Assembly: GCA_963814315.1 (NCBI GenBank)
Contig: CAWFCG010000001.1
Location: 904,146 to 968,145, forward strand
Direction of reading: 5' to 3'
From: an uncultured Chloroflexia bacterium
GTDB lineage: Bacteria > Chloroflexota > Limnocylindria > Limnocylindrales > CSP1-4
Length of the DNA stretch: 64,000 nucleotides
The notes below the pieces were generated by a model. It was not told the origin of the DNA, did not search any database, and worked only from the letters and a program-made list of their open reading frames with translations. The position numbers were made by a program, and so were the translations under genes. Each line of letters starts with the position of its first letter. Position 1 is the first letter of the stretch. Shown here piece after piece: positions 7,567 to 12,322 of the stretch.

Positions 7567-10161
7567 CTACTTGTGGTGGATGTGTGCCGCGCCATTGCCG
7601 GTCGCCCCGACAGTAGCGCCATCAGCTCCCGTGGTTGCCGTGCCGCCGGCACTGCTGGCCAGACCGGGCGGCAGCATGGGCAGCAGCCGCTGGTGCGGGA
7701 CGTCACGCCCGTCGGCTTGGGCTCGAGCGAGCCAATCACGCTCGCGGCGGACGTAGCTCAGCTCGGTATCTCGCTCCATGGCGGCCAGTGCGATGAGGTC
7801 GATCTGCGGTTCGGCGCGCAATTCATGCGCCAGCTCGAAGTCAGGCCCGCAGCGCAAGGCGTCGTAGGGGCAGGCATCGACGCAGATGCCGCACAGGATG
7901 CAACGCAATTCATCGACCTCGTACCGCTCCAGCACGCGCGGCTTGGGCATGAGCGCGCCGGTGGGACAAGTCTCGGCGCAACGGCCGCAGGACACGCACG
8001 GCGTGGTGTTCAGGCTCATGTCCAGCGGCGTGGTCACCAGCGTGTCGAAGCCGGTGCGCATGAAGTCATAGCAGGCCGCGCCGACGACCTCCTTGCAGAC
8101 GTTGGCGCAACGGCCGCAGTCGATGCAGCGTGATGGCTCTCGCAGGATGAAGGCGTGGCTGTCATCGCGGATGTAGTCGTGGTTGTAGCCGGTAAAGCGG
8201 TTCTCCTCGACGCTGCGGAAGGACAGACCGCTACGCTTTGGCTCGAGCGTCTGCAGCGTGGTGCCGTACTCGATACCCTGGCGGCGCAGATCGCAGAAGC
8301 CGATGGCCTCGCAGGTGCACTGCAGGCAGCGCGCCGACTCGCCCATGACCTCCTGCTGCGTATAGGGGATCTCGTACTCGATGTACGAGTCGTTCCGTTC
8401 CTCGGCCGGCATCGACTTCAAACGGATCCGGGGCTGCTTGACCTCGTCGGTGTAGGGCACGATGGAGAGGAACTCGGGCTGTGGCTCGGCCAGTGTCTGG
8501 CGCGTCCGGATCTCGGCGAGGTCCTGGCCCTGAAGATAGGCGTCGATGGCGTAGCTGGCGCGTCGGCCTTCGGCGACGGCCTCGACCACCGTGGCCGCTC
8601 CGGTGCGCACATCCCCCGCCCCGAAGACGCCGGCACGTCCGGTGCCGAAGGTGACCGCGTCGGCATCGAGCCGAGAGCGCTTGTTCTTCTCGATCCCCGC
8701 CGCGCCTTGATCGAGCCATGTCAGATCAGGCCCTTGGCCGATGGCCAGCAAGACGCGGTCACAGTCGATGATGAACTCGGTGCCTGCCACGGCCTGGGGT
8801 CGACGGCGGCCGGATGCGTCCGGTTCACCCAGCGCCATCCGTTGGAACTCGACCCCGGTCACCTTGTCGTTAGCATCACTAACGACTCGCGTGGGCGATG
8901 CCTGGAAGATCGCTCGAGCGCCCTCTTCGAGCATCTCGTGGACCTCACCTGCAGCCGGCATATCCTTCATGTCACGGCGATAGACCAGCGTGACCTCGGT
9001 GCAGCCCTGCCGGACCGAGGTTCGTGCGCAGTCCATGGAGGTGAAGCCGCCACCGATGACGACGACGCGCTTTCCCCTGTGGTCAGGGTAGGGGAGTCCC
9101 AGTGTGGCGATGCGGAGGTACTCAAGGCCGTCGATGACGCCGTCCGCATCCTCACCGGGGATGCCCAGCTTGTTGGTGTCATAGCAGCCGATGGCCACCA
9201 GGACCGCATCGAAGCCCTGGTTCTGAAGGTCGTCGATGCTGAAGTCGACTCCCAGCTCAGCGCCAGTGACGAGCTTGGCGCCCAGGCCCCAAACGGATTC
9301 GTACTCGGCCTCCAGGATCCGTTCCTTGGGCAGTCGGTACTCCGGGATGCCGTAGCGGAGCATGCCACCGGCCGCCGGGTCGCGTTCGAAGACGGTCACG
9401 GCATGGCCGTTGAGCGAGAGGTAATAGGCCGCTGACATGCCGCTGGGGCCGGAGCCGATGACGGCCACGCGCTTGCCCGTCGGTGGTTGTGGCTCGAACG
9501 GCGTGGGCGGCTTGGCGCCGGCTGCTTGTGCCTTCAGCACCTGGTCGCCGGCGTAGCGGTGGCTGTCGCGGATGGCGATGGCCTCCTCCACCTCGTCGCG
9601 GCGACAGTGCTCTTCACAAGGCGCTGGGCAGACGCGCCCGAGCACCGAAGGGAAGGGGATGGTGCGTTTGAAGATGCGCGCCGACTCGAGGAAATCGCCC
9701 TCGGTGTTGGCCTTCAGGAAGCCCGGGATGTCGATGTGGCTGGGGCACTTGTTCTGGCAGGGTGGCAGGCAGTAGGCGTTGTGGTCGCTGAAGATCAGCT
9801 CCAGGTTGGTCTTGCGGATCTGGCGCAGACGTGGTGTCTGCGTCCTCACCACCATGCCGGTTTCAGCCTCACGCGAGCAGGAGATGGTGGGCGTCTCTTC
9901 GCCCTCGACCTCGACCACACACATGCGGCAGGCGCCGAAACCCGGCAGCTTGGGCTCGTAGCAGAGCGTGGGCACCTCGATGCCGTGGTCTCGGCAGACT
10001 TCCAGGACGGTCTGTCCGACGCGGCCGGTCAGCGTGCGACCGTCGATTTCGATGCTGAACTCGGGTGCGACCTGACGGCGCTGCGGCGACTGCGTGGTCA
10101 GCAGGCGCTCGGCGGCCTCGTCGGGGGCGGGCGGGCTGGTCTGGGGCAGCGTGTCGGTCAT
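7567..10161 (-). CDS. Fusion: NuoG/HydA-type [2Fe-2S] domain + GltD/NfnB-like FAD/NADPH oxidoreductase + NuoG-type [4Fe-4S] motifs + C-terminal half of NuoI (StnC/SfrB-like)
   Basis: PTLC..[84 protein letters not shown]; then [24 protein letters not shown]. ATG at 10161 overlaps the nuoF stop. Confidence 0.9.
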   Translation of the reverse strand: [864 protein letters not shown]

Positions 10162-11486: not shown

Positions 11487-12322
11487 GCGGCCTCCCCCTG
11501 TGGCACGCTGGCACGAAGGGCCGCGGCGATGGTGGCGGCATCCTGCGCGCTGGACTTCGGCAGCGCTTCACCATCGATCTCGACATAGGCGCTGCCGGAC
11601 GAGGTGCCATGGCAGTCGACCGTGCTCAGGCGCACCGCACCGTCGGGGCTCACGCCGCCGACCTCGCAGCCGAGATGCTCGCGGAAGGCGGCTAGCACGC
11701 GACCGCCGCCCAGCAGTGTGCACTGCGTGCAGCGACAGACGCGCACCACGTGGCCGACCGGCGGCTCGAAGTGCAGGTGCGGGTAGGAGGTAGCAGTGCC
11801 ATACAGCTCGGCGTACCAGGTGCCGGTCTGGTGGGCGATGTGCTGCAGCGCCGCCACCGGCAGATGCCCATAGGCGCCCTGGGTCTGCTCCAGGATGGCC
11901 AGGGCGTTGCGCGGCCGGTAGTCGTTGGCGGCCAGGATATCGTCGAGCGCTGCCAGGTCGATCAGCTCGAAAGGGTCGAAGGTGCGGTCCGGCACCGGTC
12001 GGCCGGAGCGGCGCAGGGCCAATTCCTCACGACGTTCGGCGTACTGTTCGGATGCTCCCCAGTGGACGTGGTAACGGTTGCGCGTATCGACGCCACCCAT
12101 GTCGATACACTCGATGGGGCAGGCCGCGGCACACTGGAAACAAGTCTCGCACTTGAGCGCGCCCGCTTCGTCATACAGCAGCACCAGACGGCCACGATGG
12201 CGCGGCGAGATATCGTTGACGACCTCTGGGTACTGCACCGTCACCTTGGGCCGGAACACCTGGCCGACAGCGAAGACTATGCCCCTGACGATGGACAGGC
12301 CGGGAATCCTGTCCGACCTCAC
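11483..12322 (-). CDS. Fusion: N-terminal half of NuoI + NuoE/HydC-like thioredoxin-fold [2Fe-2S] domain
   Basis: GTG at 12322 overlaps the nuoH stop (GTGA), with AAGGA upstream. NuoI part: VTVQYPE..PRHRGR..G..KCETCFQCAAACP. NuoE part: ILEQTQ..YGHLP..ELYGTATSY..VRVCRCTQC..G..DG...VDCHG. Confidence 0.88.
   Translation of the reverse strand: MRSDRIPGLSIVRGIVFAVGQVFRPKVTVQYPEVVNDISPRHRGRLVLLYDEAGALKCETCFQCAAACPIECIDMGGVDTRNRYHVHWGASEQYAERREELALRRSGRPVPDRTFDPFELIDLAALDDILAANDYRPRNALAILEQTQGAYGHLPVAALQHIAHQTGTWYAELYGTATSYPHLHFEPPVGHVVRVCRCTQCTLLGGGRVLAAFREHLGCEVGGVSPDGAVRLSTVDCHGTSSGSAYVEIDGEALPKSSAQDAATIAAALRASVPQGEAA

Follow-up and report, generated by a model that had tools for sequence, protein, structure and literature searches.

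A complex I operon of Candidatus Limnocylindria with nuoI split around a putative transhydrogenase-type input module

nuoI is split around a three-gene module

The 64,000-nucleotide window analysed here, meaning the whole stretch of DNA taken from an uncultured Chloroflexota bacterium (Limnocylindrales, CSP1-4; GCA_963814315.1), carries on its minus strand an operon for respiratory complex I that spans positions 1581-16630 (all coordinates are positions within the window, and all genes described lie on that strand) and reads nuoA-B-C-D-H-X-F-Y-J-K-L-M-N. Few enzymes have been studied as closely as complex I, whose core subunit set is treated as invariant, including a single-chain NuoI that bears clusters N6a and N6b between NuoG and N2. 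Of the core subunits, this operon has A, B, C, D, H, J, K, L, M and N; its nuoI is cut within the loop that joins the two cysteine motifs, and a three-gene input module, X-F-Y, lies inside. A preliminary description made from the sequence had given this gene order with its coordinates, and a re-reading of the open reading frames (ORFs) and junctions bore both out. The translational coupling that it had proposed is likewise seen in the overlapping start and stop codons, which read GTGA at H/X, ATGA at X/F and ATGA at F/Y.

The NuoI model TIGR01971 has 121 positions and a curated cut-off of 113.05 bits. The preliminary description had expected complementary half-matches to NuoI, and these were obtained: residues 14-80 of X match positions 1-66 of the model, after which X runs on into a NuoE-type thioredoxin-like domain (residues 127-269; PF01257, E 4.9e-24), and the tail of Y matches positions 71-113, so that X begins as NuoI and Y ends with its second half, as had been claimed. 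A similar picture emerges with solved NuoI chains. On the Mycobacterium smegmatis subunit (8e9g_I) residues 11-81 of X align with 7-77 and the Y tail with 85-129; on that of E. coli (7awt_I) residues 13-82 of X align with 15-84 and the Y tail with 91-128; and on that of T. thermophilus (2fug_9) residues 17-79 of X align with 12-74 and the Y tail with 86-123. Since the alignments of X and of the Y tail are complementary, the break falls within the loop connecting one CxxCxxCxxxCP motif to the other. The first motif, CETCFQCAAACP, lies at 12151-12116 and the second at 7902-7867, exactly where they had been placed before.

All eight NuoI cysteines in the two CxxCxxCxxxCP motifs are thus present and spread over two polypeptides, with each half holding just one motif, and in our alignments of X and Y all eight, together with both prolines, are invariant. 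Within X the invariant residues around the first motif are K57, C58, E59, C61, C64, C68 and P69 (83 sequences), and within Y those of the second are C754, C757, C760, C764 and P765 (58 sequences). In a ferredoxin fold with two [4Fe-4S] clusters, each cluster takes three cysteines from one motif and one from the other.

The absence of an intact nuoI, also part of the preliminary description, held when the whole genome (3 contigs, 91% complete) was searched with the profile: no NuoI over cut-off was found, and the best two of the 18 matches were the two halves, X with 48.4 bits and Y with 41.9 bits.

The inserted module and the other subunits of the operon

Gene X (11483-12322; 279 residues) comprises the N-terminal half of NuoI, a conserved linker and a NuoE/StnA-like domain. 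The NuoI half occupies residues 1-85 (12068-12322) and contains an amphipathic helix, a YPE..RHRGR segment and the first cysteine motif. The linker, residues 86-125 (11948-12067), reads HVHWG..EQYAERREE.A.RRSGR, with columns at least 90% conserved, and the R-x-H-V-H-W at its start may replace the first strand of the NuoI hairpin. Within the class this linker is conserved more strongly than the NuoE-like domain, and it is absent from the X of the Thermoleophilia type described below. The NuoE/StnA-like domain takes up residues 126-279 (11486-11947), and its best solved match, via residues 116-260 of X, is StnA (8oh5_A). Its putative [2Fe-2S] cysteines C196, C198, C201 and C237 are conserved, in a pattern that differs from the canonical Cx4C...Cx3C. 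Homologues of X form more than 120 clusters at 73-86% identity, almost all of them 279 residues long, and the mean column identity is 68%.

Gene F (10158-11486; 442 residues) encodes the NuoF/BfuB core (PF01512, PF10589), with the sites for flavin mononucleotide (FMN) and the N3/B1 [4Fe-4S] cluster. Among solved structures it matches NfnB, StnB and HydB best, scoring 387 bits with NfnB (9bov_B) compared to 283 bits for the best NuoF of a complex I. The alignment is confined to residues 113-526 of the 584-residue NfnB, and F therefore lacks both the N-terminal domain of BfuB and the C-terminal domain with two [4Fe-4S] clusters (B3/B4), domains that belong to a full BfuB.

Gene Y (7567-10161; 864 residues) encodes a subunit like StnC and NfnA in which the C-terminal half of NuoI replaces the formate-dehydrogenase-like tail. 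Its start is probably the ATG at 10161; a 51-nucleotide open extension at 10162-10212 overlaps F and is likely untranslated, and ORF callers could mis-start Y at 10212. A NuoG/HydA-type [2Fe-2S] domain (residues 34-110, 9832-10062; PF13510, E 1.4e-20) with invariant cysteines C67, C78, C81 and C95 is followed by a GltD/NfnB-like domain (residues 127-550, 8512-9783; PF14691 and PF07992) with two [4Fe-4S] clusters, flavin adenine dinucleotide (FAD) and an NAD(P)H site, which matches NfnB 4ylf_B (E 1.2e-79). Next come an extra [4Fe-4S] motif, CxxCxCx5C (C612-C623, 8293-8328), which is common to NfnA 9bov_A and StnC 8oh5_C and has invariant cysteines, and a HydA/NfnA-type ferredoxin with two [4Fe-4S] clusters (residues 664-738, 7948-8172; C679-C689 and C722-C732). 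The NuoI half (residues 742-800, 7762-7938) holds the second motif followed by PDFELA, and the C-terminal tail (residues 801-864, 7570-7761) has a conserved SYVRRERDW part and a variable Gly/Ala/His-rich end.

Residues 37-764 of Y are collinear with residues 6-699 of NfnA 9bov_A (E 2.3e-164) and 3-700 of StnC 8oh5_C, and Y also matches NfnA 9n5u_A. When the alignment is followed residue by residue, the homology to NfnA, StnC and HydA runs through CAETCPTGA and then switches to NuoI: past this point NfnA enters its formate-dehydrogenase-like domain, whereas Y enters the NuoI half. With its [2Fe-2S] domain, inserted GltD/NfnB-like FAD domain and HydA-type ferredoxin, Y has the composition of a BfuA. 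Among 58 Y homologues the mean column identity is 76% and the cysteines of every motif are invariant, and full or almost full conservation is seen in the Rossmann glycines (GSGPxG, GGGFT), a YRR segment and the cysteines of both GltD clusters. In 55 of 57 relatives the identity of Y is 76-94%, and in three distant ones that were added it is 59%, 73% and 47%. Lys170 of Csac NfnA, a ligand of cluster A7, aligns with His201 of Y, which is invariant in the 58 sequences. We also considered a different pairing, in which the last two cysteine motifs of Y would form a ferredoxin and X would pair with the first; we think this improbable, as motifs one and two align as a single domain with the solved 9bov_A, 8oh5_C and 7p5h_A.

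To judge from these homologies X-F-Y is a Stn/Nfn-Bfu-type transhydrogenase set in the order A-B-C and no translocated NuoEFG, since Y, F and X are closest to NfnA/StnC, NfnB and StnA. The preliminary description had an E-F-G-like operon inserted into the nuoI loop; the three-gene module inside nuoI stands, and its E-F-G-like character gives way to the Stn/Nfn-Bfu type.

The remaining subunits belong clearly to their complex I families; B, D, K, L, M and N score above curated cut-offs and A, C, H and J below those for equivalogs. Upstream of X lie nuoA (16271-16630; NCBIfam NuoA models, E 3e-19, under the curated cut-off), nuoB (15591-16280; TIGR01957, 209.5 bits against a cut-off of 142.7), nuoC (14930-15562; TIGR01961, 106 bits, under the cut-off of 122), nuoD (13710-14933; NF004739, 420 bits against 360) and nuoH (12319-13713, 464 residues; PF00146, E 9e-99), whose TGA stop overlaps the GTG start of X. 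Downstream, nuoJ (7014-7547; PF00499 and an NCBIfam match) begins with a GTG 20 nucleotides past the stop of Y and is followed by nuoK (6706-7017; NF004320, 103.6 bits against 57), nuoL (4687-6699; NF005141, 682.6 bits against 556), nuoM (3101-4687; NF004499, 602 bits against 585) and nuoN (1581-3104; TIGR01770, 408.8 bits against 332.6). NuoB has CC at 95-96, C161 and C191 followed by PP, which we take to be the ligand pattern of N2. NuoD is of the quinone-reductase type, with GPQHPSTHG and GYLHRG, presumably the quinone-site motifs, and without what we take to be the NiFe cysteine pairs. With the N2 cysteines and the NuoD motifs in place, the quinone (Q) module looks functional. NuoB has an N-terminal extension of about 65 residues. 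NuoH also has an N-terminal extension, being 464 residues here compared to 336 in a relative of family f4 (locus L092; numbers with G, L and f are our labels for genomes, loci and families), and some 85 residues in its interior (roughly 315-400) cannot be aligned with distant relatives.

A canonical NuoE-F-G module with a molybdopterin-like NuoG is not what the operon encodes: only the N-terminal 100 residues or so of Y match NuoG. Elsewhere in the genome NuoG-like 2Fe-2S/4Fe-4S domains recur only in HoxU, although no genome-wide search was aimed at NuoG. Apart from X and F, the NuoE/F homologues of the genome are those of a HoxEFUYH hydrogenase; as the genome (91% complete) also showed no NuoI over cut-off, we rejected the idea that a canonical NuoEFG or an intact nuoI elsewhere serves the complex. 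This NAD-linked [NiFe] hydrogenase is encoded outside the window by a HoxE-F-U-Y-H cluster at G000:C3:1339000-1344200 (locus L089, 5377-10193), and genes for a corrinoid protein (B12-binding domains) and the URO-D family adjoin it.

Distribution within and beyond the class

We scanned species-representative genomes for relatives, which gave 520, and read the arrangement in the best 80 loci, mostly metagenome-assembled genomes titled Ca. Limnocylindrales/Limnocylindria or Chloroflexota and including CSP1-4. The order H-X-F-Y-J is found in 62 of the 80, and the remaining 18 are cut by contig ends within the same order; no other gene order was seen among these best 80. The fusions proposed from the single window thus recur in all 80 loci, and a search for intact NuoI in 121 genomes of the class, our own included, found one over cut-off in only four. 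One of those four (G075) has it within a separate canonical 14-gene operon, alongside the split operon. In 117 of the 121 there is no complex I but the split one, and a chromosome-level relative (L081, G476) contains only the two halves and no intact NuoI. The arrangement is conserved across the whole class, far beyond what chance or mis-assembly could produce. The tallies for the class, for Chloroflexota and for the Thermoleophilia type include the unpublished genomes G096, G087, G106, G091, G067, G112, G276, G363, G251 and G426; none of the genomes that we cite singly is one of these.

Variants of the module were tallied by searching 401 Chloroflexota genomes with X. In family f1, to which the present genome belongs, 11 of 23 genomes have a full-length X, and in the remaining 12 X is short, spanning residues ~5-190 without the 2Fe-2S part. 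X is full length in all four members of f2 and all 16 of f4, and the 2Fe-2S part is missing in L090 and L091 too, so the NuoE-type cluster is apparently dispensable. In G053 (L090), where X has 220 residues, F and Y form one ORF of 1334 residues (6150-10154 of that locus, minus strand). Family f3 (G001, L091) has a nuoB-nuoD-X'-F-Y cluster, with an X' of 239 residues and nuoH elsewhere, and no NuoI over cut-off was found in G001. In an f4 genome (G030; L092, 11400-13335) about 2 kb of ORFs on the opposite strand separate Y from nuoJ; one of these resembles a membrane protein, and a short peptide-coding segment is repeated twice.

Gene order and homology show the architecture outside the class too, as scattered clusters in other Chloroflexota and as one operon in Actinomycetota labelled Thermoleophilia. 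Seven genomes of other Chloroflexota families have X-like matches covering residues ~10-190. A nuoB-X'-F-Y cluster is found in 4 of 4 examined (G237, G181, G137 and G441; loci L175-L178, L180 and L181), a separate nuoA-C-D-H cluster without nuoB in both of those examined for it (G237 and G441), and all four genomes also have a canonical complex I with an intact NuoI. The X' of f3 and of these other Chloroflexota is the short form without the 2Fe-2S domain.

An exhaustive search of the representatives turned up divergent X-like proteins of full length. One of them, P0226, a protein of 253 residues with canonical NuoE cysteines, heads a second X-like family of at least 120 clusters. Taxon labels in this lineage are Thermoleophilia or Actinobacteria (one label in one search, 5 of 5 in another), no close relative of it was found in the 401 Chloroflexota genomes, and the Atlas lists both Chloroflexota and Actinomycetota clusters. 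Gene order for this Thermoleophilia type was read in the 13 longest of 80 metagenome loci: all 13 have A-B-C-D-H-X-F-Y-J-K-L, with M and N next where the stretch reaches that far (L141 and L144 give identical rows and may be one population). Here F has about 640 residues and an N-terminal 2Fe-2S domain, and two C-terminal CxxCxxCxxxC motifs are present in all 44 loci with a complete F; by these features it is a complete bifurcation-type BfuB. F and Y again share a frame in L173 and L174 (~1750 residues, of which F and Y make up ~1470, with an Ala/Pro-rich linker). The single-ORF form is thus seen in two different lineages, where sequencing error is possible, and is consistent with F and Y acting together. 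Some database proteins that look like X-F or H-X fusions (P0135, P0188 and P0205) were rejected as Arg/Pro-rich frameshift products.

In the window, in f3 and in the Thermoleophilia type exactly 19 residues separate the CP of the Y motif CAETCP from the RC that opens the NuoI C-terminal half. The identical spacing points to a single fusion event behind the three groups. Trees of limited size, with 15 rows for NuoD and 19 for F, separate the three split-type groups; with only one or two canonical rows included, they carry no firm weight on how these groups relate to canonical subunits or on one versus several origins.

A working model, its rivals and known systems

The module's nearest characterized relatives suggest how it might work. 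The text of PMC11829005 gives the electron path in NfnABC as FAD-A7-A6-A3-A2-A1-[B1-FMN-C1]-B3-B4-Fd, with A2-A4-A5 as a dead-end branch in the formate-dehydrogenase-like domain, and describes A7 as held by three cysteines and one lysine. It also reports that B3/B4 are needed for bifurcation, and that their deletion in HydABC abolishes it.

In our model residues 1-85 of X and 742-800 of Y would re-form the N6a/N6b domain on NuoB/D/H. From the textbook ferredoxin fold we infer that N6a and N6b would each bridge the two polypeptides, with three cysteines from one chain and one from the other, and would thereby bolt the input module onto the quinone module. NADH would be oxidised at the FMN of F and NADPH at the FAD of the GltD-like domain of Y; the two electron streams would join in the cluster chain of Y and leave via its HydA-type ferredoxin domain. 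The dead-end branch of Nfn would in this way become the outlet, from Y through N6a/N6b and N2 to quinone, with protons pumped by NuoH and NuoJ-N, and the common wire could also let NADH and NADPH equilibrate. We give a probability of about 60% to this reading, a proton-pumping, non-bifurcating, reversible NAD(P)H:quinone oxidoreductase fed by NADH at FMN and NADPH at FAD. The case for a non-bifurcating, reversible enzyme is that F is without B3/B4, that the NuoE-type cluster is often lost and that the enzyme is the sole complex I in nearly all genomes of the class; we read this as electron bifurcation among NADH, NADPH and ferredoxin not being expected in this lineage.

The physical re-assembly of the two halves was modelled by complex prediction with X 1-125, Y 655-864 and four 4Fe-4S clusters. 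The interface score ipSAE was 0.47 compared to 0.01 for the best of three controls, which is rated as 'weak support'; the runs had at least 78% of their contacts in common, and the partner pLDDT (predicted local distance difference test) was at least 60. In calibration 58 of 80 solved complexes and 2 of 110 mismatched pairs came up to the mark; at an ipSAE of 0.60 or less only 7 of those 80 reached it, along with both of the passing mismatches. Since intact NuoI has been solved many times, this pass may reflect structures that the predictor has learnt, and we consider that the halves may re-assemble.

Several points weigh against the proposed dual-input enzyme. The complex prediction was weak and returned no contacts, and the 91% completeness leaves room, for this genome alone, for an intact nuoI in the missing part. 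The dual-input function is for every member a prediction from sequence, and the specificity of the GltD-like site for NADPH rather than NADH is drawn from homology to NfnB and GltD; the conserved YRR motif is presumably a mark of NADPH binding. The change from lysine to His201 at A7 means that cluster potentials may differ from those of Nfn, and the full bifurcation-type F of the Thermoleophilia type suggests that a coupling beyond simple dual input may be ancestral.

This last point leads to a different possibility, which we regard as doubtful for the enzyme of the window: an energy-coupled transhydrogenase in which the quinone and proton-pumping module takes the place of ferredoxin, and quinone reduction or the proton-motive force drives hydride transfer from NADH to NADP+, whether by bifurcation with quinone as the high-potential acceptor or by reverse electron flow. 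The module does have a bifurcating enzyme of NADH, NADPH and ferredoxin as its ancestor; it retains FMN and B1, and most genomes also keep a putative NuoE-type cluster; no PntB transhydrogenase was found in the genome at 91% completeness; and the C-terminal pair of [4Fe-4S] clusters of BfuB is kept throughout the Thermoleophilia-type loci with a complete F, a form for which such coupling is attractive. However, F in the present lineage lacks just those B3/B4 clusters whose loss ends bifurcation in HydABC (text of PMC11829005), the NuoE 2Fe-2S part is gone from 12 of the 23 family relatives, and as the sole complex I of 117 of 121 genomes the enzyme would be expected to have plain NADH oxidation as its main task. 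One may speculate further, as a tentative idea, that complex I captured a whole Nfn/Stn transhydrogenase through the split of NuoI, with the quinone module replacing ferredoxin as third partner or, in the Thermoleophilia form, joining it. If true, such a machine would couple the exchange between NADH and NADPH to quinone reduction or to the proton-motive force. It would represent an energy-linked transhydrogenase of a kind not known before, bring a quinone-linked enzyme into the Bfu bifurcating family, and have two iron-sulfur clusters, each shared by two polypeptides, to hold it together.

A plain NADH:quinone oxidoreductase, in which the GltD-like domain is a structural or electron-wire relic without NADPH turnover, is unlikely. 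Relic domains are known in this family, as the A2-A4-A5 branch and the pterin-less formate-dehydrogenase-like domain of Nfn are called evolutionary remnants in the text of PMC11829005; Y, however, is the best-conserved subunit of the module (76% mean column identity compared to 68% for X), down to its Rossmann glycines, YRR segment and GltD cysteines, which is hard to square with a relic. More improbable is the idea that the halves never pair, so that X-F-Y would be a separate soluble Stn-like enzyme and the Nuo genes an incomplete or NuoI-less complex. The separation of nuoB-X'-F-Y from nuoA-C-D-H in some Chloroflexota could be taken that way, yet even when the genes scatter X'-F-Y adjoins nuoB while the A-C-D-H cluster lacks it, and in the window the start and stop codons overlap, each half has one cysteine motif with all eight cysteines invariant, and no intact NuoI is found. 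Lastly, an assembly error, frameshift or pseudogene has a negligible chance of explaining the locus: some database fusion proteins (P0135, P0188 and P0205) are clearly frameshifted, but the same frames and lengths recur in 80 independent loci, the more than 120 clusters of X are nearly all of one length, and the arrangement also stands in contigs longer than 1 Mb and in a chromosome-level record. The clusters of X and the 80 loci with one gene order led us to reject an artefact.

The halves resemble canonical NuoI (Nqo9/TYKY; 8e9g_I, 7awt_I and 2fug_9) in the amphipathic helix, the two CxxCxxCxxxCP motifs and the PDFE segment; they align with it end to end and occupy the same operon slot between nuoH and nuoJ. 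The difference is that here a gap of about 4 kb separates the two genes that encode them, and that the halves are fused to different subunits of the input module. To the Stn/Nfn-Bfu enzymes (StnABC, 8oh5; NfnABC, 9bov and 9n5u) the module is similar in the order of an E-like subunit, an F-like subunit and one combining [2Fe-2S], GltD and ferredoxin domains. Those enzymes are soluble, whereas here the module sits in the operon of a membrane complex; the formate-dehydrogenase-like domain of NfnA with cluster A5 gives way to the NuoI half, F is without the N-terminal domain and the ferredoxin-reducing B3/B4 domain, the A7 lysine is a histidine and the NuoE-type cysteine set is altered. The 11-subunit ferredoxin-dependent NDH-1, or 'ancestral' complex I, similarly has no NuoEFG cluster between nuoD and nuoH; it keeps an intact NuoI/NdhI and has no flavoprotein input module, unlike the operon described here.

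Among published proposals the closest is the 'Nuo-Bfu' complex I predicted in Geobacter, Deferribacteres, Planctomycetes and Nitrospirae by Schut et al. 2022 (PMC9304861), who also predict Mbh-Bfu complexes. As given in the text of that paper, a Bfu-type module in place of NuoEFG feeds a proton-pumping quinone reductase; it lies within a 14-gene nuoA-N operon, with BfuABC at the NuoEFG position and ferredoxin and NADH as donors, and the text, figures and supplements aside, mentions neither a GltD/NADPH domain nor a split NuoI. In our window the module instead lies between nuoH and nuoJ, inside nuoI. The supplementary clade tables of the same paper may show whether BfuB sequences of this sort had already been catalogued. 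Mbx-like complexes of Thermotoga and proteobacteria also have a GltD-related flavoprotein at the NuoI position, which, in the part of Degli Esposti 2015 concerned with them (PMC4758237), substitutes for the NuoI homologue in a Mrp-containing, non-quinone complex; here, by contrast, the two NuoI halves persist in a nuo operon proper, which also has NuoF. For Chloroflexus aurantiacus the text of PMC3150298 describes a second nuo cluster whose annotation includes an intact nuoI; that cluster is a different thing.

The preliminary description regarded the architecture as undescribed, and our literature search, which covered main texts, found no description of a split NuoI or of a Stn/Nfn module inside nuoI; for instance, the text portions of Spero 2015, a Chloroflexi-supergroup preprint and a heliorhodopsin preprint make no mention of a split NuoI. 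As we read it, an entire class of bacteria abundant in soil and fresh water depends on a complex I whose NuoI is cut in its loop, the cut serving as the putative docking point for a different, NADPH-capable input module, with the same in relatives from a second phylum. This would be a natural example of a split ferredoxin domain with two [4Fe-4S] clusters and would suggest a route to new respiratory input modules, the insertion of an operon into a subunit gene. It would also connect a proton pump in the membrane with the soluble bifurcating enzymes of the Bfu family, and it predicts direct respiration of NADPH, or an energy-linked supply of it, in organisms that lack PntAB. Automated annotation labels the genes 'NADH:ubiquinone oxidoreductase subunit E', 'formate dehydrogenase major subunit' or 'FAD-dependent oxidoreductase', and genome-based metabolic surveys that draw on such names will consequently record NuoI and NuoG as missing from these organisms.

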